DNA from: Planctomycetota bacterium
GTDB taxonomy: Bacteria > Planctomycetota > UBA8108 > SXIK01
NCBI GenBank assembly: GCA_965223265.1
Contig: OZ244999.1
Span: 4,736,001 to 4,800,000 of the forward strand
Direction: 5' to 3'
Length of the DNA: 64,000 nt
A program made the translations under genes and the position numbers. Positions within the stretch are counted from its first letter, which is position 1. Each line of letters opens with the position of its first letter. This document shows positions 1 to 31,970 of the stretch, piece by piece. The notes beneath the pieces were generated by a model that made no database searches, was not told the DNA's origin, and saw nothing but the letters and a program-made list of their open reading frames with translations.

Positions 1-456
1 CGGGCAGAAGCTGAGAATGTCGTCGCAGGCGGAAGATTCGCCCCGATCGGTCAACGCGGTCTTTTTGTCAGTCGACAAGGATACGGTGTCCCCGGCTACC
101 TGAAAAAAGCCAACGACGAGACCGCGCTTGTCGTCTTGATCGAGGACATCGCGGCGTGGGAAAACCTTGACGAGATCTTGACTGTAGATCACATCGACGT
201 GTTTTTTGTGGCGCCATCTGACTTTGCCGCGTCGATGGGACACATCGGCGACTGGAAGCACCCGGAAGTGCAGGAAAAAGTTGACGATGCTCTGCGGCGC
301 ATCGTCGCAGCAGGGCGGCGTGCGGGAACGCTGACGACGAACGACGACGTCGCCAGATTCGCGGGCATGGGAGTGCAGATGCTTTTGGTCAACGTCCAGG
401 AGTGGCTCGCCGCGGGTGCGGCGCAGTACCGGGCACGGGCGGAGGCAGCACGCTGA
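1..456 (+). CDS. HpcH/HpaI aldolase family protein (5' truncated by window edge)
   Basis: Frame 1 is open from base 1 (RAEAENVVAGGRFAPIGQRG...LIEDIAA...IDVFFVAPSDFAASMG), matching HpcH/HpaI motifs. Confidence 0.85.
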   Translation, partial: RAEAENVVAGGRFAPIGQRGLFVSRQGYGVPGYLKKANDETALVVLIEDIAAWENLDEILTVDHIDVFFVAPSDFAASMGHIGDWKHPEVQEKVDDALRRIVAAGRRAGTLTTNDDVARFAGMGVQMLLVNVQEWLAAGAAQYRARAEAAR

Positions 457-674
457 GGACGTTCGCCTTGGATCTTCGGTAGCCAAACACAGCGCGTCGG
501 GCAGCAGTAGTGATGAACACACGTTCCCCGCCGCCTGCAAAAAATCAGAGCAAGAGACGACCTTCGGCTCGGCACTTCTGTCGACGTTGAGGTCAAAAGT
601 GGTTGACGGTGTTGATGGAAAAGGTGGTTGCAGTGTCGGCGATTTGGCCCGCGCGCGGCTCGACTTGACGCCCG

Positions 675-683
675 TGCTATGAT
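675..683 (+). promoter_or_regulatory. possible extended -10 promoter (TGcTATGAT) for the kinase gene
   Basis: TGn-TATGAT about 60 bp upstream of ATG 743; no convincing -35. Confidence 0.35.
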
Positions 684-742
684 TCCCCCACCGGCTCTGA
701 CTGGATCTGTTTTGCTCGCTTCGTGAACGCACCCGGGACGCA

Positions 743-2044
743 ATGAAACGAACGCTTCGCTCACGTCAAAACCTTGGGAAATACCGCATCGAAAAACTCC
801 TCGCCCAGGGCGGTTTTGCGGAGGTGTACCAGGCTTTCGACACCATCGAAGGCCTGCGCGTAGCGCTGAAGATTCCCTACGCTCACCTGATGGACAGTGG
901 CGTCCTCGAAGACTTTCGTCGCGAGGTGAGGGTGACGGCGCAGCTCGAGCATCCGAACATCCTGCCGATAAAAAACGCCGAGTTTGTTGACGGCCACTTC
1001 GTGATCGCGCTGCCGCTGGGAGAACGCACGCTCGCCGACCGGCTCAAGAGTCGCATGTCGATGCCGCTCGCCGTGCATCTCGCCGGACAGATGCTCGAGG
1101 CACTTGGGTTCGCACATCACCGGCGCATACTCCACTGCGATGTGAAGCCCGAGAACTTCATACTCTTTTCGGGCAACAGGCTGCGCCTGTCAGATTTCGG
1201 CATCGCCAAGGTGTCGCTGCACACGGTGAGCGCGTCGGGCTCGGGAACGCTCGGGTATATCGCGCCGGAACAGGCGATGGGGAAACCGTCGTTTCGTTCG
1301 GACGTGTTTTCGCTCGGGCTGATCTTCTACCGCATGTTCGCAGGCGTCTTGCCGCAGTGGCCGTTCGTGAGGCCGTTTCCGGGCAGTGATCGCCTCAAAG
1401 AGAGAGTGCATCCAGAGTTCGCGGCGCTGATCCACCGGGCGACCGCGCTGGAGCCGAAGAAGCGGTTTGAAAACGCCGACCAAATGCGGCGCGCGTTTCA
1501 AAAGCTGCGACAGAAGACGTCGGCGAAGCAGCGACAGCGAAGGAAGCGATCGCGCCCGCCGCGCCAAGACTGGAAGGAGGTTCGGTGGCGGCAGTTTTTG
1601 CGGCAGTACGGCGCTGTGCTGGAGGTGCGGGGCGAATGTCCGAAATGCGCCGGCCCGGTGGCCGAGTGTATGCCGTCGTGCTGCTGGTGCGGCGTGTCGA
1701 TCGCGAAGTACCGCGGCAAGGCGCGGTTCGGGCGCCAGTGCAGCCGGTGCAGGCGCAGTCTCAAGGCGGATTGGCGCTTCTGTCCATGGTGCTTTGGCGC
1801 CTCGCTCAGCGGCACGAGTGAGCGCGCGCTCAGCGACCGTCGCTACGAGGCGAAGTGCCAGAATCCAGCGTGCACAAGAAAAACGCTCATGCCGTTCATG
1901 CGTTATTGCCCATGGTGCCGGCACAAGGTGCGTAGGCCGTGGGCCATCCCGGGCGCGTCCCGCAAGTGCGCCAAGTGCAAGTGGGGAATCGTGGACGCGT
2001 TCTGGGACCACTGCCCGTGGTGCGGGGTAGGGATCAAGGCGTGA
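743..2044 (+). CDS. Ser/Thr protein kinase with C-terminal zinc-ribbon repeats
   Basis: GGFAEVY, VALK, HCDVKPEN, DFG and APE motifs; eight Cys pairs in the C-terminus (CPKC, CCWC, CSRC, CPWC, CQNPAC, CPWC, CAKC, CPWC). Confidence 0.92.
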   Translation: MKRTLRSRQNLGKYRIEKLLAQGGFAEVYQAFDTIEGLRVALKIPYAHLMDSGVLEDFRREVRVTAQLEHPNILPIKNAEFVDGHFVIALPLGERTLADRLKSRMSMPLAVHLAGQMLEALGFAHHRRILHCDVKPENFILFSGNRLRLSDFGIAKVSLHTVSASGSGTLGYIAPEQAMGKPSFRSDVFSLGLIFYRMFAGVLPQWPFVRPFPGSDRLKERVHPEFAALIHRATALEPKKRFENADQMRRAFQKLRQKTSAKQRQRRKRSRPPRQDWKEVRWRQFLRQYGAVLEVRGECPKCAGPVAECMPSCCWCGVSIAKYRGKARFGRQCSRCRRSLKADWRFCPWCFGASLSGTSERALSDRRYEAKCQNPACTRKTLMPFMRYCPWCRHKVRRPWAIPGASRKCAKCKWGIVDAFWDHCPWCGVGIKA

Positions 2045-2112
2045 GAGGGAAGCAACCAAGCGCACAAAAGCTCTTGCCGAGGGGCGAGAGCACGGCAGAA
2101 TAGTGGCTCCAC

Positions 2113-2186
2113 GGGCGTGTAACTCAATTGGCTAGAGTGCCACCCTTACAAGGTGGAAGTTCCCAGTTCGAGTCTGGGCACGCCCA
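2113..2186 (+). tRNA. tRNA-Val (anticodon TAC)
   Basis: Acceptor GGGCGTG/CACGCCC, anticodon arm CCACC-CTTACAA-GGTGG, T arm CCCAG-TTCGAGT-CTGGG; CCA not encoded. Confidence 0.96.
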
Positions 2187-2538
2187 TTCTTCTTAACCCC
2201 CTCTGGGGACTCGATAAGTGCCTTGTGCGCCTGGGACTTATGCCCTGGACCAGGAGCCTCAGCGACCGGCTCTTCATCGCAGGCCATCGCGCCGTTTCGC
2301 CCCGTTTCGTGCTCTGAGGGGGTGCGAATCTGGTAGCGTCTGTCGGATGCATCGCCCGGCGCACCCGCCCCCCGCAGGGGGTGGAAGCTCATCCCCTTCG
2401 AGGTAAACGCGGCAACGATCACCAAACAACTGGGTGCGACCGGGTCGAATCCGCGCGTCGAGCGTCGAGAACCGGGCCGCATCGGGCGTTGCTCCGGTTC
2501 AAGTTGTGCTTTCTGCCCGCTAACCGGCCTCGACTGTA

Positions 2539-3060
2539 TCACCTGAAATCATTCTCCTCCTTTTCGAGCTCCTCCAAGAGCTTGTCAAACTCCTCCTCAG
2601 TCTCTTCGTCGCCAGGTGCTCCCTCGACGTCGACTCCGTCATCGTCGCTCCCGAAAACGCGTGCGTCAGCAGAAATCGGCGCAAACCAGCGAGCGATGTA
2701 CGAACCGAGCCAGACGAACGGGGTGCCGAGATACTTGGGCACGACGATCGTGCGGTGGAGCATGATGTTGTCGTCGGGAACCGGCATGTCGAAGTAATCC
2801 GCTGCATCACAGGAGGCCGGGACGACGATCTCCCCAGTACGTATCGTCTGGTCGATGGTCGCAGACACCGCCAGTCCTGTGCCGTGAAAGGGCACGAGAA
2901 CAGGCCAGGTGACGAGCACTACACGCGTGTCATCGGGCCACAGCGGATCAAGGACATGCTCTTCGTAGAATTCGCAGGTACGGGCTTCGTCGGTGAATCC
3001 GCAGCCGACGTTGGACGATACTACCCCCAGAACAAGGCTCAGTACGGCAAGGCGCTTCAT
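2539..3060 (-). CDS. putative lipoprotein, paralogue 3 of 3, acidic C-terminal tail
   Basis: MKRLAVLSLV...NVGC lipobox-like start; ATGA overlap with the preceding gene. Confidence 0.7.
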   Translation of the reverse strand: MKRLAVLSLVLGVVSSNVGCGFTDEARTCEFYEEHVLDPLWPDDTRVVLVTWPVLVPFHGTGLAVSATIDQTIRTGEIVVPASCDAADYFDMPVPDDNIMLHRTIVVPKYLGTPFVWLGSYIARWFAPISADARVFGSDDDGVDVEGAPGDEETEEEFDKLLEELEKEENDFR

Positions 3061-3590
3061 GGCGGACTCTCCGTTGTGAAGCCAGCCTCTGATGAAGGAG
3101 GAGAGGAGACTTCGTCGTTCGTTGTCTCCGGCGGGATCGGTCGTCCCTGAGCATCTCGCCTCCAAAGGTAGCCCCACCGCGGCCATCCCCACGCCGCTTC
3201 CTCGCGCACTTCGATCGCAAAGACTGAGCGGGCGCTCCAATCTCCGAGGAAGACGAACGGCGTCAGCAATACTTTCGAGGGAAAAAAACCCCACCAGGAA
3301 TAGAGATCCTCCTCATAGCGCGCGTCCGAAAAATGCCGCCAGAACTTCTTGGTGTCGACGTAGGCACTCGGCGCGGAGGCGGCGGGGGCGATGAGGACGT
3401 TGTCGACCGCAAGGGTCACCAGGCACGTGGGCACGAGGAGCGGTGTCATTGCCCATTGTCCGACCTTATTTTCCGGCACGATCGTGCGGTCGACCCAGTT
3501 CGTCGTCGACAGATGGTTGCGATCGACGACGGCACAGCCGCTGACGGCGGCGACGATCGCGCAGCTGAGTAGGACCGTTTCAAGACGCAT
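3057..3590 (-). CDS. putative lipoprotein, paralogue 2 of 3
   Basis: MRLETVLL...VSGC lipobox; PLLVP/LAVD/TPFVFLG segments shared with neighbours. Confidence 0.72.
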   Translation of the reverse strand: MRLETVLLSCAIVAAVSGCAVVDRNHLSTTNWVDRTIVPENKVGQWAMTPLLVPTCLVTLAVDNVLIAPAASAPSAYVDTKKFWRHFSDARYEEDLYSWWGFFPSKVLLTPFVFLGDWSARSVFAIEVREEAAWGWPRWGYLWRRDAQGRPIPPETTNDEVSSPPSSEAGFTTESPP

Positions 3591-4062
3591 TCGCGCTCTC
3601 CTCCGCGTCATCAGCTTCGGGGTGTGCACCCTCCTCTTCGAGCTCGCCATCTCGACGGGGTGACTCCTCGACGGGAACAATACTGAGAACGACCTCGGCA
3701 CCGACGAACATCACCGCTGCGGTCAACACGCGCATCGGCATGAGAACCACTTCGAACACTCCTGCGTCCTCCACCTCCGTGAATGGCCACTCAGCGAGCT
3801 CCCTAGCTTCAGACAACTGCTGGACGGGATTCACGACGGTGGCGTCCACCAAAAGCGTCGAAAGCCCTATGGGCACGGCCACAGGGGTGAGCGCCGCACG
3901 GCCGGCGTCGCTCTCAGGCGCCAGGTGCCGGTCGATGAATTCGGTCACCGGACGGTTGTCCCAGTTAAGAACAGCACAACCGGAGAAGAGGAGAGCCAGG
4001 AAAAGAACGGTGACGCGGCGAAGCAACGCACGATGTTCAGACACAACATTCAATCGATTCAT
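3580..4062 (-). CDS. putative lipoprotein, paralogue 1 of 3
   Basis: LFLALLFSGC lipobox; PVAVP/LLVD segments; start uncertain. Confidence 0.68.
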   Translation of the reverse strand: MNRLNVVSEHRALLRRVTVLFLALLFSGCAVLNWDNRPVTEFIDRHLAPESDAGRAALTPVAVPIGLSTLLVDATVVNPVQQLSEARELAEWPFTEVEDAGVFEVVLMPMRVLTAAVMFVGAEVVLSIVPVEESPRRDGELEEEGAHPEADDAEESANAS

Positions 4063-4903
4063 GAGAAGGTCTCGCGAAATGGAATCTGCACTTTCGAGTT
4101 GCGCCCCGCAAAGAGGTGAAGACGGGAAATCTCGCTCCACGGCGGTCGTTTCCAGATTGATCCCTTCGATGTCGCCGCGGCTTCTCTCCCCGGCCGTTAG
4201 TGAGAACTGCTCCAAGCCGACGAACAGCGTCGGCGATGAATTGCGCAGCTGCCCTACACGCGTCTGCACACCGCAAACAGGAACAGCAAATCCGTGGCCA
4301 GGCTCAAGAAGAGTCTATCTGGCGCTCCGACGGCCTCTCCAAGCAGGGAATATTGTCTGGGAGGCGGAGAAAACCCGCAGCAAGGCAGCAAAGACATCGC
4401 TCAGCGAGAAGCATGCGCCGAGTCGCTTAGACGCATCGGGAGACCAGCGTGAAGTGAGCGCGGACATTCTCGCTCGCGAGTCGACGAACTTGCCACCGGT
4501 GTGAACGGAACGCTAGCGCTTTTGAGCGAACTATCATTAGCACAGGCGCTTCTTAAGGGGCAGCTGTCGGAGCCTTACCGGCACCTTCTGAGCCGCCGAA
4601 ACAGTCTCCGGGACGGAATTCGTACGCACAACTGGGAAAAAACTCCGCGGTCCGGCCAACACGAGCTCCTGTCGAAAGAAAAGAACCATGCGAGAGTGAA
4701 TCTCGCGTTGGTATGTCGTTTGCTTGCTCGTCCATGGTTCTCGGGTAGTGAGTGCTGACAGAGAGATTACGATTCAGGCGCCGGACGCCAAGCGCAGGCT
4801 GCGATGACACGTTGGGGAGCCGAAGCGTCGGTGCGACTCCACCTCAGGTGCTGCGAAGTTGATGCAAGTGAACCTCAATCGCGTCAGCGATGGATAGCTC
4901 CGA

Positions 4904-26943: not shown

Positions 26944-27069
26944 GCTTCGCTTCAGTCGTGCGTCTAAAAGGTTCGTCTGAGGATCGCACGCCGTCCGATA
27001 CGACGCCAGATGACAACAACGGACACGAACGTTATGAGATTTCGAAACGAACTACGAAAGGAAAATCCA

Positions 27070-27390
27070 ATGACCGCGACAATCAAGAATGCTGACTTTG
27101 ATCAAACGGTGCTCGAGTCGAGCGTTCCGACACTCGTCGACTTTTGGGCCCCTTGGTGTCCGCCGTGCATCCAGCTCCACCCTACGATTGAGCAGATCGA
27201 CGAGGCAGCGGACGGCCGCTACAACGTAGTCAAAGTCAATGTTGATGAGGAACCAGAGCTCGCTGAGCGCTACGGAATCCAGTCACTGCCCACGCTCGTC
27301 GTGTTTGACGACGGCGAACCGGTCTCGAGGCTTGTAGGGCTCCAGCCCAAACAGACAATCGTAGATCTCCTCGAACGAGTCGAACGTTGA
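27070..27390 (+). CDS. trxA: thioredoxin
   Basis: LVDFWAPWCPPC, KVNVDE, LPTL. Confidence 0.9.
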   Translation: MTATIKNADFDQTVLESSVPTLVDFWAPWCPPCIQLHPTIEQIDEAADGRYNVVKVNVDEEPELAERYGIQSLPTLVVFDDGEPVSRLVGLQPKQTIVDLLERVER

Positions 27391-27586
27391 TTCGGTCTGA
27401 GGCGCAAGCCTTTCCTTTCGAGTTGATCACGGTTCATTGCGATTTCCGAAAGTGCTAAGTCCCACAGTATCTGGCGCGGAAATCCCAGATTAAATGGCAT
27501 GGTGCTGATTCGCGGGTGCGAGATGCGATTTGCGAGGCGAGAAGGCGCGGGTCGTCGTGTCCCGGACGGCACGACGACCCGGGGAA

Positions 27587-27904
27587 TCACGAAGGGCGAG
27601 GCGTGGCGCGAGCGTCACCGCGACGATCGCGGAGCTCGGCGAGGAACTCGACGGCGTCGACGAAATTCAGCCGCTTGACGATCATGACCAGGTCGATCGG
27701 GTTGAAGTTCGTCTCGCAGCGAAAGCAACGCGCGAGGTTGGTGGACGCCTTCGTCGCGGTGTTGAATTCGCGACACCGCGGACAGAGGAAGCGCACGTAG
27801 CCCTCGGAGATTTTCGCGGGGACGCCGAGCAGATCGAGGAGCCACGCGATCGGTATATCGTTTCTCAACGACCGCAGGAGCTTGCCGGAGAATCGTCCTG
27901 TCAT
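27587..27904 (-). CDS. CHC2 / primase-type zinc finger protein (transposon gene 5)
   Basis: FLCPRC...ARCFRC..NFNPIDLVM....FVDAVEFL pattern. Confidence 0.75.
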   Translation of the reverse strand: MTGRFSGKLLRSLRNDIPIAWLLDLLGVPAKISEGYVRFLCPRCREFNTATKASTNLARCFRCETNFNPIDLVMIVKRLNFVDAVEFLAELRDRRGDARATPRPS

Positions 27905-28194
27905 GCGACGCCACCTCCACCGCTCGGCGCCTTCAAATATCGGATTCGTTGCAGGCTCTCGAGATACTCTTCGAGGACGATCTGGAGCGCTCGCAGCTGA
28001 GCGCCCAAGGCGGCGAGATAGGCGTCTTGCTCGGTGTAGGAGGAGCGTTGCGTGTAGTCGAAGTCGAGATCGGGGTACGCGGCGTTCAGAGCGAACAGGG
28101 CGATCTCGAGGTTCGTCGCGAGGGTCATCAAAACGGCGAGCTCAGGATACTCGGCGAAGTCGTTGACTCGAGGCATCAGGGTCTTGTGGAACAT
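27901..28194 (-). CDS. small helical hypothetical protein (transposon gene 4)
   Basis: 97 aa, ATGA-coupled to the next gene, inside the element. Confidence 0.6.
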   Translation of the reverse strand: MFHKTLMPRVNDFAEYPELAVLMTLATNLEIALFALNAAYPDLDFDYTQRSSYTEQDAYLAALGAQLRALQIVLEEYLESLQRIRYLKAPSGGGGVA

Positions 28195-28213
28195 GGCGCG
28201 TCAGTCTCCGTTC

Positions 28214-29005
28214 TCAGGGCAGATGGAACTCGGGGGCGGTGTCGTTGACGAGCGCCTCGGAGATCTTCTGGACGTTCTTGCTCGCGGCCTGAATGAGGCA
28301 GGCGGTGGCGATGTTGTTGATGCGCCGCGGCACGCCGCTTGAGTAGTCGTGGATGAGCGACTTCGCTTCAGGCTCGAAGACTTTCTGCGAGGCGCCGGCT
28401 GCGCGCATCTGAAAGTCGATGTACTCGACCGTCTGCTCCTTGCTGAGCGGCGGCACGTGGTAGCGCACGCTGAGCCGATGCGTGAGATCGGCGTGGCGCG
28501 CTCGGGTAAGCTCCTTTCTCAGGGTCTCTTGTCCGCTGAGGAGGATCTTCAATGGCGGGCCGTCCTCGAGTCCGGAGCTGACCAGAAGTCTCAGATCGGT
28601 GAGCGACTCCGAAGGAAGCAGGTGCGCTTCATCGATGACGAGGATTGTCGTGTGCTCGTTCGCCCCGACGCGATCCAGGATCTGGAGGAAGAGCCGCTCC
28701 TTGCCACGGCGGGGCTGCTCGCCGAGGCTGGAAACCAGGAGCTTCAGAATGCCGTTTGCCCCGACGTAGGTCAGCGAGAGATAGATCGGGTCGTAGAGGT
28801 TGCGGCTCAGCGAGCGCACGAAGAGCTTCACCAGAGACGACTTCCCCACCCCGGTGAGTCCGGTCACCAGGCCGATCGAGCCCGACTTGGCGAGGTACTC
28901 CAGTCGAGCGAGTCCCTGGGTGATGCGCTCGTCGGAAAGAATCTGCTCGACGGGCGCGCGCTCGAGAAAGGGCTGCGTCGTCATCTTGAAATGGGTGGTG
29001 AACAT
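28214..29005 (-). CDS. ExeA/TnsC-like AAA+ ATPase (transposon gene 3)
   Basis: Walker A GLTGVGKS, Walker B LVIDEAH, LSGQ, GVPRRIN; TGATG overlap with the transposase. Confidence 0.9.
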   Translation of the reverse strand: MFTTHFKMTTQPFLERAPVEQILSDERITQGLARLEYLAKSGSIGLVTGLTGVGKSSLVKLFVRSLSRNLYDPIYLSLTYVGANGILKLLVSSLGEQPRRGKERLFLQILDRVGANEHTTILVIDEAHLLPSESLTDLRLLVSSGLEDGPPLKILLSGQETLRKELTRARHADLTHRLSVRYHVPPLSKEQTVEYIDFQMRAAGASQKVFEPEAKSLIHDYSSGVPRRINNIATACLIQAASKNVQKISEALVNDTAPEFHLP

Positions 29006-30567
29006 CAGTCCTCCTTTCTGCCTGCGAGTCGTTGAAGCTCGTAGGCGATGTAGGGAATGGATTTCTCCGGAGCCTTCTCGAAGGCCCTCAGCAAGAGGAC
29101 TTCGGTGAGGCTGGGAGTACGGTTGTAGAACTTCTTGAGTTCCTCGAGCTCCTCGGCGGTGAAGCTCGAGAGGGCGCCCTTGCGCCCCATGAGCCGGCCG
29201 AGAAGGCATGCGAAGTCGGTGAAGGGCCACTGGCGAGAGGCGATGACACGACGGTAGTCGATCCCCTGGGCGCGCTTCTTGAGCTCCTCGTCGTGCTCAC
29301 GGCGAAGAAGCTCCAGATAGTTGTGCTTCGCTTTGGCGGGAGGGGCGGGAGCACCGGCGTCCTCGCCCTCTTCGCGCTCGTGAAGGACGCCCTTTCCGAG
29401 GTACTCTTCGTTGCTGGAGTAGATGAGAACCGTGTCGGGCGCGGAGAAGGGATCGTAGCGGACTTCGACCTTGTCACCGCGCAGACTCTTGTCGACGCGA
29501 TAGAAGCGGCGATCGAGCTGGACGTCGGAGAAGTCCGGGTGAACGCGCCGCGTCTCGCGGCACATGAAGAACTCGGTGACGCGCTGAATGTCGACGTGTC
29601 GGATAGGCCGTTTGAGGCCGGCCTCGGCTCGTGCCTCGGGTGTTTCGCCGGTCTCGGTGTTGACCTGGCGGTGGTAGGCCACGGTCTTCCAGGAATCGAA
29701 GCTTCCGTTGAGCGAGTCGAGAGTGAGGATCTCGCCGGCTCTGACCTCGGCCTCGAACTGGCCCTGTATCGTCTCGATGAGTCGTTCGACGAGACCACCC
29801 GGTGGCGGATCGCCCTTGCCGCGATGGATGAGCCGGGTGACAACGGCAAGGCATGCCGCCTTGAGCGCTTTGGAGATATAGACCTTCGCCTGATCGACAT
29901 AGAGCTCGTCCGAAGCACCGTGCTTGGCCCACGCCCGCAGCAAGCAGTCGATCAAGACCTCGAGATTTTGCCGAAGGTAGTAGCGCCCCTCGACGAGCGA
30001 GCGGCTGTAGCAGTCGATGAGAACACAGAGGAAGGTGGGGACGACTTCGCCGTCGTGCAGCACGTAGGGTCCATCGGCGAAGTCGCCGACCCAGAGGGCA
30101 TGGGTGGAGTCACGAGTCCAGCGTTTCCGGACTTTCCTCCTCTCGACACCGAGCTTCAGCCGCGTCGCGCCGGCGATCTTGAGGTAGCGGAAGAGGGTCG
30201 AACGCGGAATGGTCTTTCCGTGCTGAGCCTGGAGGAACTTGTTGATGGCGAAGTGGGAGCGCAGTGGCTGATCACGCTTCAGCTCGACGGCTTTCTCGAC
30301 GAGCTCTTTGCCGTGGGCACGCGGTTTCCCGCGATCGCTTCGCGGCCTGCGGGCAAGACCCTCGAAGCCCTCCTCGCGATAGATGCGAAGCTTCCGCCTC
30401 AGGGTCGAAAGAGCCGGCTTGCGTCGCGATCCGTCGGGAAAGATGCGCTCTTCTTTGGCGAGCTCGCGGAGAAATCGCGCGGCTTCCTCCTCCGGCACCT
30501 CGCCGATGACGACGGGCTGGAGAAGAGCCGCCCAGAAGATAGCCCAATCGAGATCTTTCGCTTTCAT
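29005..30567 (-). CDS. DDE transposase/integrase with Mu-type C-terminal domain (transposon gene 2)
   Basis: RSDRG HTH region; WVGD, IDCYSR, LYVD, GLVER; GDKVEVRYDP. Confidence 0.9.
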   Translation of the reverse strand: MKAKDLDWAIFWAALLQPVVIGEVPEEEAARFLRELAKEERIFPDGSRRKPALSTLRRKLRIYREEGFEGLARRPRSDRGKPRAHGKELVEKAVELKRDQPLRSHFAINKFLQAQHGKTIPRSTLFRYLKIAGATRLKLGVERRKVRKRWTRDSTHALWVGDFADGPYVLHDGEVVPTFLCVLIDCYSRSLVEGRYYLRQNLEVLIDCLLRAWAKHGASDELYVDQAKVYISKALKAACLAVVTRLIHRGKGDPPPGGLVERLIETIQGQFEAEVRAGEILTLDSLNGSFDSWKTVAYHRQVNTETGETPEARAEAGLKRPIRHVDIQRVTEFFMCRETRRVHPDFSDVQLDRRFYRVDKSLRGDKVEVRYDPFSAPDTVLIYSSNEEYLGKGVLHEREEGEDAGAPAPPAKAKHNYLELLRREHDEELKKRAQGIDYRRVIASRQWPFTDFACLLGRLMGRKGALSSFTAEELEELKKFYNRTPSLTEVLLLRAFEKAPEKSIPYIAYELQRLAGRKED

Positions 30568-30607
30568 GATCACACCTCGCATGGGGCGAGCGAGGCGTGA
30601 TTCTCGC

Positions 30608-31276
30608 TCACGCCCAGGCTGCGGAGGTTGCCAAGTCGGGGAAGATCGATCGGCCGAAGAGGGAACGGAACACCTGGTCGATCGAGAGAGCTCGAAGTGC
30701 CGCGACGAGAGTGTCCCGCCGTGATTCGCTTCGGTACTTGGCTGGACGGACGGCGAAGACCTTGCGGAAGATGTCGGACCTCGCCGAGCGCTCTCGGATG
30801 AGGCGGAGAGCCTCCAGGAGCGTGGCGTTGAGAGAGCGAAAGAACGAAAGCCAACGATGAAGTGTTGAGTGCGCGAGGCTGCGCTCGTCGATCGCTCCCC
30901 TGTCGTCACCCTCGTGGAAGACGGGCATGTGTTCGACCTTGACGGCTTCGCGATACGAAAGCTCGTCGATCTGGAGGTAGCGCCGAGCGTGATCGAAAAC
31001 GCAGTCGCGAACGTAGCGTTTCCCCGGCAGCGCGAAGGGCGGGTAGAGCGTGAAGGAGCGCTTACACAGAGGACACTTCCAGCGACTCAGAAGCGACAGG
31101 ACAGGTTCGACCAGACGCCTGACGATAACGAGGAACACGCGCTCTCGGTGACCGCGGTAGCGGAACCGATCTGGCTCCCCGCTGCAATTCGGGCAGCGGT
31201 TACAGGTCGGCTGGATCTCACGGCGGCGAACAGCTTCGCCATAGCTCTGTATCGCGTTGACCAAATGGGGTAGCAT
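30608..31276 (-). CDS. zinc-ribbon/HTH protein, DUF6431-like (transposon gene 1)
   Basis: CPNC, RWKCPLCKRSFTLYP, AHSTLHRW. Confidence 0.7.
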   Translation of the reverse strand: MLPHLVNAIQSYGEAVRRREIQPTCNRCPNCSGEPDRFRYRGHRERVFLVIVRRLVEPVLSLLSRWKCPLCKRSFTLYPPFALPGKRYVRDCVFDHARRYLQIDELSYREAVKVEHMPVFHEGDDRGAIDERSLAHSTLHRWLSFFRSLNATLLEALRLIRERSARSDIFRKVFAVRPAKYRSESRRDTLVAALRALSIDQVFRSLFGRSIFPDLATSAAWA

Positions 31277-31577
31277 CGCTCTCTCCGTACGGGGACTTGC
31301 GGAGAGAAGTGCACCAACACCGGTCTCTCCGCTCCCCTCTTTACTCGAGGTGAGGCGAGGAGTCGAGCGAAGGTCCAGGGCGCAGCGTCGAACGGGGGGC
31401 GCGGGGTAGGCGGGGTATGATCGGACGGTCGGTTCGGCGGGGTATGCCGGGGCGTTTCCGGGTCAGTGAATCTGAGACTCGTCGCTGCTCACGAGCCAGA
31501 GTTTGTGGGACTCAGCACGAAAGTACTAAAGTCAGTCAGCAGAATCACACCACCGCTTCTCCTGGAGGATACTGATC

Positions 31578-31970
31578 ATGGACCCAAGGTTCATTACCAA
31601 GAAGATGCACGCCTTTCTCGACTACCCGGTGGCCCTCAGTCTCATGGTGCTGCCGTTCGTTCTAGGCCTCGGAACCTCGAGCCCGTCTGCACTGTCGCTC
31701 TCGGTCGTAGCGGGAGTTGCCGCCTTGATCCTAACGCTGCTTACCGATCACGAATTGGGTGCGTTTCGCATTCTGCCGTACCGCGTCCACCTCACAGTAG
31801 ACCTTCTGGTCGGAGTTGTGTTTGTCGCTGCTCCGCTTGCCCTTGGTTTCGAAGGGCTCGACACTTGGTACTACTGGCTAAACGGTGGCGCCGTGCTCGC
31901 CGTCGTCGGGCTGCACCGACCGGATCCGGTGCCGCGTGCCCCAGTTGCGGATGACGCGGCCGCAGCTTGA
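31578..31970 (+). CDS. small membrane protein (SPW-repeat-like)
   Basis: GGAGG RBS; HAFLDY, LLTDHELG, HLTVD, four hydrophobic segments. Confidence 0.75.
   Translation: MDPRFITKKMHAFLDYPVALSLMVLPFVLGLGTSSPSALSLSVVAGVAALILTLLTDHELGAFRILPYRVHLTVDLLVGVVFVAAPLALGFEGLDTWYYWLNGGAVLAVVGLHRPDPVPRAPVADDAAAA

Follow-up and report, generated by a model that had tools for sequence, protein, structure and literature searches.

The 64,000 nucleotides of contig OZ244999.1 from a Planctomycetota bacterium (assembly GCA_965223265.1, positions 4,736,001 to 4,800,000 of the forward strand), here called the window, contain an intact, autonomous and recently active transposon of 4,065 bp. The element very probably represents a widespread family with a fixed core of four genes, encoding a DUF6431 zinc-ribbon protein (g1), a DDE transposase (g2), an AAA+ ATPase (g3) and a stand-alone zinc-binding domain of the primase type (g5). 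A fifth gene, g4, is interposed between g3 and g5. No description of such elements was found in the literature searched, ISfinder, TnCentral and most subscription journals lying outside this comparison, and the family is apparently undescribed. Since the element carries no cargo, it is formally a large insertion sequence. Its boundaries and genes are as follows.

27453-31517, minus strand (direction of the genes): whole transposon, 4,065 bp, with 10 full-length genomic copies; a separate contig in 4 runs
27447-27452: target-site duplication, copy 1, CGAAAG; all 10 genomic copies have a 6-bp duplication of their own
31518-31523: target-site duplication, copy 2, CGAAAG, from the sequence
27453-27478: terminal inverted repeat at the end downstream of g5, TGCTAAGTCCCACAGTATCTGGCGCG, from the repeat search
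31492-31517: terminal inverted repeat at the g1-proximal end, from the repeat search
30608-31276, minus strand: g1, DUF6431 zinc-ribbon protein with a helical C-terminal half, 222 aa; assigned from DUF6431 in relatives and an Atlas score of 0.99
29005-30567, minus strand: g2, DDE transposase, 520 aa; assigned from Pfam, phrog_310 and the invariant D162, D225 and E261
28214-29005, minus strand: g3, AAA+ ATPase of the MuB / Tn552-p271 type, 263 aa, Walker A and B intact; assigned from AAA_22 and hhalign
27901-28194, minus strand: g4, 97-aa protein of no known family, clade-specific, with homologues in 7 related loci
27587-27904, minus strand: g5, stand-alone primase (DnaG)-type zinc-binding domain, 105 aa, four invariant Cys; assigned from PF01807 in relatives and a fold match

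The first letters of the element are TGCTAAGTCCC / TGCTAAGTCCCACAGTATCTGG and the last GGGACTCAGCA / CCAGAGTTTGTGGGACTCAGCA. The ends have the form TG..CA, with CGAAAG directly outside both. In a repeat search the terminal inverted repeat was the top-ranked of 372 pairs (27452-27478 and 31492-31518, 27 nt, 81% complementary); the 27-nt arms take in one base of CGAAAG each, and 26 nt lie inside the element. The sequence and the repeat search thus agree with a preliminary description of this DNA, which had proposed these ends, 26-bp imperfect inverted repeats, a length of 4,065 bp and a CGAAAG duplication. It had also recognized an intact transposon of the DDE and ATPase type with exact ends and a layout beyond that of the two-gene IS21, and five co-oriented genes that are partly coupled in translation. 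Both points stand. The five open reading frames (ORFs) are all on the minus strand in the order g1-g2-g3-g4-g5; the stop codon of g2 overlaps the start codon of g3 (TGATG), as does that of g4 with the start of g5 (ATGA), and gaps of 40 nt and 19 nt separate g1 from g2 and g3 from g4.

The evidence for recent activity comes from the other copies in the same 9.18-Mb genome (one contig, 60.8% G+C), for which the preliminary description had advised a search. Ten matches, that in the window included, span element bases 1-4065 at 100% rounded identity. Eight of these copies are identical, and the other two have one common substitution at position 2465. Each of the ten is bordered by a perfect 6-bp direct duplication, different at every copy: GCTGGA, GGTCGG, CAAAAC, GGTAGG, CGAAAG, CCAAAC, AATAAG, GTTAGC, TATAGA and GCGATT. 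In Logan contigs of four runs the element forms a separate contig of 4,065 or 4,066 bases with a word depth of 23, 48, 99 and 122, compared to 2.6-9.9 for the flanks (roughly 9-17x); the four runs are of one sample, probably the source sample of the assembly, and are therefore not independent support. These contigs contained no end-to-end joint and no empty site, and since they drop rare forms they are uninformative on either.

Relatives of the transposase are numerous. Among 8,000 scored candidates, 1,280 proteins matched at E<=1e-30; the best 120 of these are 483-546 aa long and 54-76% identical, and are mostly on contigs of 2-5 kb, a size to be expected where a repeat interrupts assembly. 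Genome contigs, with one genome scanned per species, yielded 52 loci (given L numbers below), in records titled Planctomycetota, Thermodesulfobacteriota, Pseudomonadota (Gamma- and Zetaproteobacteria), Bacteroidales, Anaerolineae and Acidobacteriota, and in one bin titled Methanophagaceae archaeon. The nearest named relatives are in records titled Planctomycetota. A complete 4.4-Mb genome (G132), also of this phylum, contains one relative as 17 copies of 3,790 bp with 0-4 differences.

Gene order was scanned in six-frame translations of 48 of these loci (L039-L086), and of four loci from other searches, queried with the five window proteins; the four last of the 52 loci, which are short fragments, were left out. 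The 48 loci derive from about 33 assemblies, three of which give 6, 12 and 3 loci. The order is g1-g2-g3-g5, with g5 detected in 42 of the 48 and g1 adjoining g2 likewise in 42. The six loci lacking a g5 match comprise three in which the contig ends early (L063, L066 and L076), two that are degenerate (L075 and L078), and L043, which has no g5 despite 776 bp past g3. The six lacking g1 comprise four whose contig begins inside g2 (L055, L065, L066 and L067), L075, where there was no match, and L078, where the match is far from g2. The preliminary description had raised the question of whether genes 1, 4 and 5 are conserved in homologous elements; g1 and g5 are, most of their misses being cut contigs, while g4 is confined to the nearest clade. 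Among distant relatives, a Streptomyces plasmid has DUF6431, DDE, a 92-aa ORF and AAA, and no g5; a repeat search gave no convincing terminal repeats there. A Thermobacillus plasmid and loci L103-L105 have DDE and AAA only. To judge from these gene contents, the accessory modules can be shed. The DUF6431 protein of the Streptomyces plasmid, read by eye, appears to carry a helix-turn-helix.

The transposase is assembled from an HTH_32 domain, an rve core, a Mu-transposase C-terminal barrel and a conserved C-terminal tail of roughly 130 aa, as judged with Pfam, where Mu-transpos_C scored 32.7 bits against a cut-off of 21.7. All 13 aligned family members have the catalytic residues D162, D225 and E261. 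Among PHROGs, g2 matched phrog_310, a transposase of transposable phages (8.6e-29), and its best matches among PDB sequences are TnsB chains (E 0.009). The ATPase gave AAA_22 in Pfam (1.7e-17), TIGR03015 at 6.6e-35, which is under the cut-off, and phrog_296, a 'DNA transposition protein' (2.5e-25); its GxxGxGK and DE motifs are invariant in the family. The reference sequence of g3 in the family profile began one codon early, at 29008, and g3-profile residue numbers are therefore higher by one. With PADLOC there were weak matches to TnsB_V-K (3.9e-6), TnsC_V-K (1.1e-3) and a DnaG-like model, and no defence system. The window proteins had no match to Pfam TniB or TnsC at E<=0.1, and Pfam and NCBIfam gave no serine resolvase, TniR or TnsA among the five ORFs.

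Profile comparison with hhalign linked the family of g3 to MuB (96.0%, E 4.5e-9, 219 columns, from MuB residue 73) and to p271 of Tn552 in the copy on plasmid pMW2 (94.9%, E 4.1e-8, 133 columns). The g2 family profile matched the pMW2 Tn552 transposase pieces in the HTH region (86.3%, E 4.8e-6) and over the end of the core and the barrel (94.7%, E 6.2e-8, 168 columns). By these alignments g2 and g3 are remote homologues of Tn552 p480 and p271, and Tn552 is the nearest characterised element tested with respect to both proteins, MuB being an equally good relative of the ATPase.

Tn552 of Staphylococcus aureus (p480, p271, the resolvase BinL and bla genes) resembles the window element in being a non-phage element in which a Mu-type DDE transposase is followed by an AAA+ helper. 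It has TG..CA ends and target duplications of 6 or 7 bp. The duplications seen here, 6 bp at ten of ten copies and 6 or 7 bp in G132, are in line with these. However, Tn552 has BinL, a res site and cargo, none of which is present in the window element, and its terminal inverted repeats of about 116 bp are longer than the 26-27 nt found here. Conversely, g1, g5 and g4 are extra, with no counterpart annotated in the pMW2 copy of Tn552, where a 'recombinase family protein' adjoins the transposase. The transposase of that copy (L126, 5765-7304) consists of two overlapping ORFs of 277 and 254 aa with no coding sequence entered in the plasmid table, and is probably a pseudogene. The likeness to Tn552 emerges at the level of profiles only; a tblastn search against plasmids at 1e-5 gave no Staphylococcus among the ten commonest genera listed.

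Phage Mu shares with the element the MuB homologue of g3 and the Mu-type barrel of g2. MuB prefers A+T-rich DNA, and the insertion sites described below are A+T-rich. Mu differs in that the window element is only 4 kb long with five ORFs, none of a structural phage family; g3 lacks about the first 70 residues of MuB, and the target duplication is 6 bp as compared to 5 bp for Mu. Tn5053 and the type V-K elements have the same order of transposase, ATPase and small zinc protein. In the window element the last of these has a primase-type fold and no TniQ match, there is no resolvase and there are no CRISPR parts, and the 6-bp duplication contrasts with 5 bp in those elements. IS21 and IS481 are similar in having a DDE transposase and TG..CA ends, IS21 also in having a helper ATPase and repeated end sites; the Mu-type barrel, the tail of roughly 130 aa and the five genes set the window element apart from the two genes of IS21 and the single gene of IS481.

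The protein encoded by g5 was identified through its relatives. Pfam PF01807 (Zn_ribbon_DnaG) was found in 26 of 26 aligned relatives, with a best E of 9.1e-10, while the window protein itself scored 22.0 bits against a cut-off of 24.9. The zinc ligands, C41, C44, C60 and C63, are all invariant. A stand-alone 'CHC2-type zinc finger' had been proposed in the preliminary description; the domain is indeed the one known in Pfam as the 'CHC2' primase finger, but its ligands are C4, not CHC2. The g5 profile aligned over its full length with PDB entry 1d0q (E 1.5e-4), which is the zinc-binding domain of the primase from Bacillus stearothermophilus. An AlphaFold (AF2) model with a predicted local distance difference test (pLDDT) score of 88.8 gave, against 1d0q, Z 10.8 and a root mean square deviation (rmsd) of 2.2 over 92 aligned residues, with a Foldseek E of 2.7e-4 and a template modelling (TM) score of 0.65. 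Against 2au3, the Aquifex primase, Z was 10.0 over 88 residues. The next matches were T4 primase (Z 5.7) and Twinkle (Z 5.0), with no other above Z 3.5. The predicted fold of g5 is therefore that of the DnaG zinc-binding domain. It corresponds to the N-terminal domain of DnaG alone, with no TOPRIM or helicase-binding domain, and is encoded by a transposon; its second zinc ligand is Cys, where DnaG has His. No TOPRIM RNA-polymerase domain is attached to g5, which is 105 aa in all. The g5 profile matched 1,633, 493 and 94 cluster representatives (50% identity) at E<=1e-3, 1e-10 and 1e-30, respectively. The best 150 representatives are all 94-245 aa in length; these are free-standing domains of a large family and not pieces of primases.

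Many g5 relatives of 165-245 aa (P0128-P0270) have a C-terminal extension that is lacking in the window protein. Its components are a linker of low complexity, a short motif similar to P-V-x-I-G-D-I-L and, at the terminus, a heptad-like helix that resembles a coiled coil (e.g. R-I-x-x-L-E-Q-x-V).

DUF6431 (Pfam PF20020) was detected at E<=0.05 in 14 of 14 relatives of g1, with a best value of 4.3e-9. The window protein scored 21.1 bits against a cut-off of 26.6, and had an Atlas score of 0.99 to DUF6431 clusters. An alignment of 14 relatives has C68 and C71 throughout, and C28 and H41 are near-invariant. The g1 profile found nothing under E 0.78 among PDB sequences. The protein is probably a sequence-specific DNA-binding factor. 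To judge by titles and abstracts, neither of the two papers naming DUF6431 in the literature searched concerns transposition.

In many lineages g1 is divided between two overlapping frames, the second being +1 relative to the first (L044, L050, L052, L054, L060, L062, L063, L064, the L069 group, L083 and L101). The frame breaks at a constant codon: 'CCC TTT CGY' is found where the window has the in-frame 'CCC TTC GCG' (approximately 31020-31035, within YPPFALP). The C-terminal part is conserved, yet lacks a start codon of its own in most of the split lineages. The split forms make up several deep branches of the transposase tree, outside a 24-row in-frame clade that includes the window element; in L061 g1 is split differently. 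This arrangement looks like a programmed +1 ribosomal frameshift, which the clade of the window element would have lost by a 1-nt deletion. A second case concerns the transposase. In all 17 near-identical copies of G132 it lies in two frames (+1), the break being at 'TCT TAG C' (4797-4810 of L034), and a one-base skip at this point gives back the consensus length of the family transposase. The presence of a split transposase in so active an element suggests that a stop codon is bypassed by +1 recoding, as happens in prfB.

The g4 protein had no Pfam, NCBIfam, PHROGs or PADLOC match. Its best Atlas score, 0.79, is uninformative, and a word search of a collection of 5.8 billion proteins returned three, including that of the window. 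A further 17 metagenome loci of closer relatives were scanned for g4 and module content. Homologues occur in seven related loci in two gene positions: in the 70-75% clade (L091, L093, L094 and L106) the gene is flanked by g3 and g5, and in the 58-62% clade (L098 and L099) it follows g5, as it also does in L039, the only one of the 48 scanned loci in which g4 was seen. It is absent from L095-L097. Ten g4 sequences align well, which indicates a real gene. From this distribution g4 appears to be an add-on confined to the nearest clade and not a family feature. A possible origin as the detached C-terminal part of the long forms of g5 was rejected, there being no similarity by phmmer or with a 10-sequence g4 profile (best E 1.3).

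The ends of the element contain several candidate signals in addition to the terminal repeats. At each end a terminal 18-bp site is accompanied by a second, weaker copy 23-33 nt further in.

27457-27474 and 31496-31513: first 18-bp sites, from a motif script
27480-27497: second copy of the 18-bp motif at the end downstream of g5, AAATCCCAGATTAAATGG, 10 of 18 positions; seen by eye, under the 11-of-18 threshold of the script
31463-31480: second copy at the g1-proximal end, GAGTCTCAGATTCACTGA, 12 of 18 positions, from the motif script
31436-31444, 31409-31417 and 31400-31408, minus strand: three direct repeats, TACCCCGCC twice and TACCCCGCG once, at the g1-proximal end only
31299-31332, minus strand: stable hairpin in the leader of g1, GCGGAGAGA...TCTCTCCGC, 23 nt ahead of the start of g1; seen to fold in 9 of the 12 elements compared
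27549-27580, minus strand: G+C-rich hairpin of 11 bp, 7 nt past the g5 stop, read from the sequence

The TACCCCGCC array of the window lies 74-118 nt from the g1-proximal tip. The motif is present in all seven elements with defined ends, two of which have only 46-47% G+C; its orientation is constant, and it lies 55-123 nt from the g1-proximal tip in each. The 7-mer ACCCCGC occurs genome-wide at 0.12 per kb; this exact core is absent elsewhere in the seven elements on both strands, and the 9-mer with at most one mismatch gives only scattered single matches outside their g1-proximal end. From its pattern of occurrence the array would provide a second DNA specificity, and nothing else distinguishes the two ends as clearly. 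A stable hairpin 20-45 nt before the g1 start was found in 9 of 12 elements (the window element, L091, L093, L039, L099, L095, L034, L073 and L056), in which the structure is kept and the stem sequences differ. It may control translation of g1 or block read-through. The 5' arms of these hairpins are purine-rich and resemble a ribosome-binding site. The hairpin past g5 is possibly a terminator without a T run. A scan of the ends found no sigma-70-type promoter or T-run terminator, the consensus being one that may not fit this organism.

The preliminary description had also recommended a comparison of duplication length and target consensus. The duplication is 6 bp at all ten copies, and no target consensus, nor any sign of a fixed attachment site, is visible among the ten insertion sites. 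G+C within 10 bp of these sites has a mean of 0.479, compared to 0.607 for the genome (resampling P 0.0006), and three of the ten lie inside ORFs that pass a crude filter on G+C at third codon positions (GC3). Duplications of 6 bp were also found in one Desulfobacterium and one Planctomycetia genome, with one site there possibly 5 bp. That all ten copies have their own duplication, together with the lack of a resolvase, indicates that the usual product in this genome is a simple insertion.

The cumulative GC skew has its minimum near 7.95 Mb, taken as the origin, and its maximum near 3.52 Mb, taken as the terminus; on this basis seven of the ten copies are co-directional with replication (two-sided binomial p ~0.34). 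In G132, neighbours 1.3 and 5.5 kb apart are in opposite orientations, and 9 of 17 copies were counted by hand as co-directional if the origin is at the contig start; with three dnaA paralogues the origin of that genome is not fixed. It had been suggested that a primase-like finger might steer insertion toward replication forks. This does not agree with the mixed orientation in either genome, and fork-directed targeting of the TnsE type is unsupported.

The copies in G132 (L109-L125) tell a more complex story. A duplication of its own is retained by only 4 of the 17, its length being 6 bp in three and 7 bp in one, and there are seven flank-exchange matches, with a chain of L121-L109-L122-L110-L125 and a group of L111/L115/L118. 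Three copies have an identical right flank and two others have another right flank in common, from which it follows that some copies sit inside another repeat. The pattern points to extensive rearrangement at these elements, by either recombination between copies or intramolecular replicative transposition, which are indistinguishable from the flanks.

How might such an element work? The transposase would bind the 18-bp sites, pair the ends and join the 3'-OH ends to the target with a 6-bp stagger. The ATPase would capture target DNA and activate the transposase, as MuB, TnsC and p271 do; target capture of this kind would fit the A+T-rich sites. The g1 protein would most likely read the TACCCCGCC array, either marking one end or controlling expression. 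The gene for g5 is in the position of tniQ in Tn5053 and the type V-K elements and is as conserved as the enzymes; its product would most likely serve as an adaptor, acting together with the ATPase on either target DNA or the strand-transfer product. By the same analogy a target-selector role is possible for g5. Complex prediction for g5 with the g3 ATPase gave scores of 0.00 and 0.02 against a mark of 0.32. It may be proposed, tentatively and with better odds of being wrong than right, that the primase zinc-binding domain is an obligatory subunit linking the ATPase and transposase to single-stranded DNA, primed DNA or the host primosome, so that the reaction would be completed by host priming instead of by TnsA or a resolvase, while the DUF6431 protein would read the TACCCCGCC array at a dose set in many lineages by the conserved +1 frameshift.

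If true, this would represent a new kind of accessory machinery for DDE transposons of the Mu/Tn7 type. Controlled target choice is best understood in transposons with DDE and AAA+ proteins (Mu, Tn7, CRISPR-associated transposons and IS21), which are being engineered for genome insertion. This family has the same engine in 4 kb, with DUF6431 and a primase zinc-binding domain in place of the TniQ/TnsD, TnsE and Cas selectors; to our knowledge neither domain has been tied to transposition before. In Faure et al. (2023; PMC10293859), searched by term, the words primase, CHC2, Tn552 and Tn5053 do not occur. The family is abundant; at least two complete genomes, with 10 and 17 near-identical copies, give evidence of its activity. 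A role for the zinc proteins would give DUF6431 a function and explain simple insertions without a resolvase or TnsA, and the family might yield a compact insertion system and natural test cases for +1 recoding.

Several findings weigh against parts of this picture. As to the core enzymes, the g2 family profile gave no significant match to MuA itself (hhalign 5%), and the best NCBIfam model for g2 was IS481 (7.9e-30, residues 54-310 of 520), at 104.3 bits against a cut-off of 224. Since IS481 is the best model, a copy-out/paste-in route, as in IS3-type elements, may apply instead. Among the zinc proteins g1 is the less well defined: its model has a pLDDT of 73.4, with one of five models confident, Foldseek found nothing in the PDB at E<=0.001, and the best hit in a wide fold comparison, at Z 5.0, was among unrelated helical proteins. 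Neither g1, g5 nor their relatives matched Pfam TniQ, and the analogy of g5 with tniQ is one of gene position only. Three loci, L043, L075 and L078, have no g5 although there is sequence in which it could have been detected. The A+T-rich, intergenic sites may reflect the survival of harmless insertions instead of choice, and the four of 17 copies with their own duplication in G132 make it clear that simple insertion is not the sole outcome in the family.

The foremost alternative, which is possible though not favoured by the odds, is that g5 couples transposition to host replication and is not a target selector. As a primase mimic it would bind single-stranded DNA or the DnaB/DnaG primosome, and priming or restart would complete a replicative or copy-out insertion. 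Mu, once strand transfer has taken place, needs the restart primosome of the host for its replication. The fold of g5 is the full DnaG zinc-binding domain over 92 of its 105 residues (Z 10.8; E 1.5e-4 to 1d0q), and its conservation equals that of the enzymes (42 of 48 loci). With no second nuclease like TnsA and no resolvase, processing of the 5' strands must come from elsewhere. In G132 the 13 of 17 copies without their own duplication and the seven flank-exchange matches are what one would expect from intramolecular replicative transposition, and are accounted for equally well by homologous recombination between the 3.8-kb repeats. Intramolecular replicative events would, however, break the duplications that all ten copies in the genome of the window have kept, and there is no orientation bias with replication.

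It is doubtful that g1 and g5 are regulators only, that is, repressors or inhibitors that limit copy number and stand outside the transposition machine. Both are small zinc proteins, and g1 heads the operon, preceded by a conserved leader hairpin and lying downstream of a possible operator array. In many lineages full-length g1 is produced only through a +1 frameshift, a device by which insertion sequences typically control dosage, and in the Thermobacillus plasmid and L103-L105 a DDE and an AAA protein suffice. On the other hand, the positions of g1 and g5 are fixed across several phyla and transposases 41-61% identical to that of the window, g5 is tightly coupled to g3 or g4, and the TACCCCGCC array, some 125-170 nt upstream of the g1 start, is nearer to the transposase sites than to the start codon.

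That the element is an unrecognised member of a named family (IS21, IS481, Tn552, Tn5053/Tn402 or Tn7) is improbable: the core pair is homologous to p480 and p271 of Tn552, and the TG..CA ends and the 6-7-bp duplication match that element, but NCBIfam models of insertion sequences are all far under their cut-offs (ISNCY_2 38 vs. 250, IS3 28 vs. 160 and transpos_IS21 21.8 vs. 160 bits for g2; 13.2 vs. 200 for the IstB-type model IS21_help_AAA), RefSeq gives relatives only the generic name 'DDE-type integrase/transposase/recombinase', no description was found in the literature, and there is no resolvase, TnsA or TniQ in the element.

The window copy is inserted in an intergenic gap, 57 nt past a thioredoxin-like ORF (27010-27390) and 55 nt short of a small ORF (31578-31970) that reads as hydrophobic. 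Three consecutive copies in the genome, at 4763453, 5140254 and 5517823, have the same orientation and are spaced at 376.8 and 377.6 kb, possibly by coincidence. Their flanks and duplications differ, and hence this is not a segmental duplication. Older and more divergent members of the family have decayed in the same genome, with pieces of g2, g3 and g5 at 2465298-2478808, and a g5-like ORF is present at 809064-809351, outside the window; the decayed g5-like ORFs are 47-62% identical, and two have an internal TGA. Among the wider relatives, the transposases of L047 (the Methanophagaceae archaeon bin) and L049 (a Bacteroidales bin) are virtually identical (branch lengths 0 and 0.003); either transfer took place very recently or one of the two bins contains a binning error, and the binning of L047 is doubtful.

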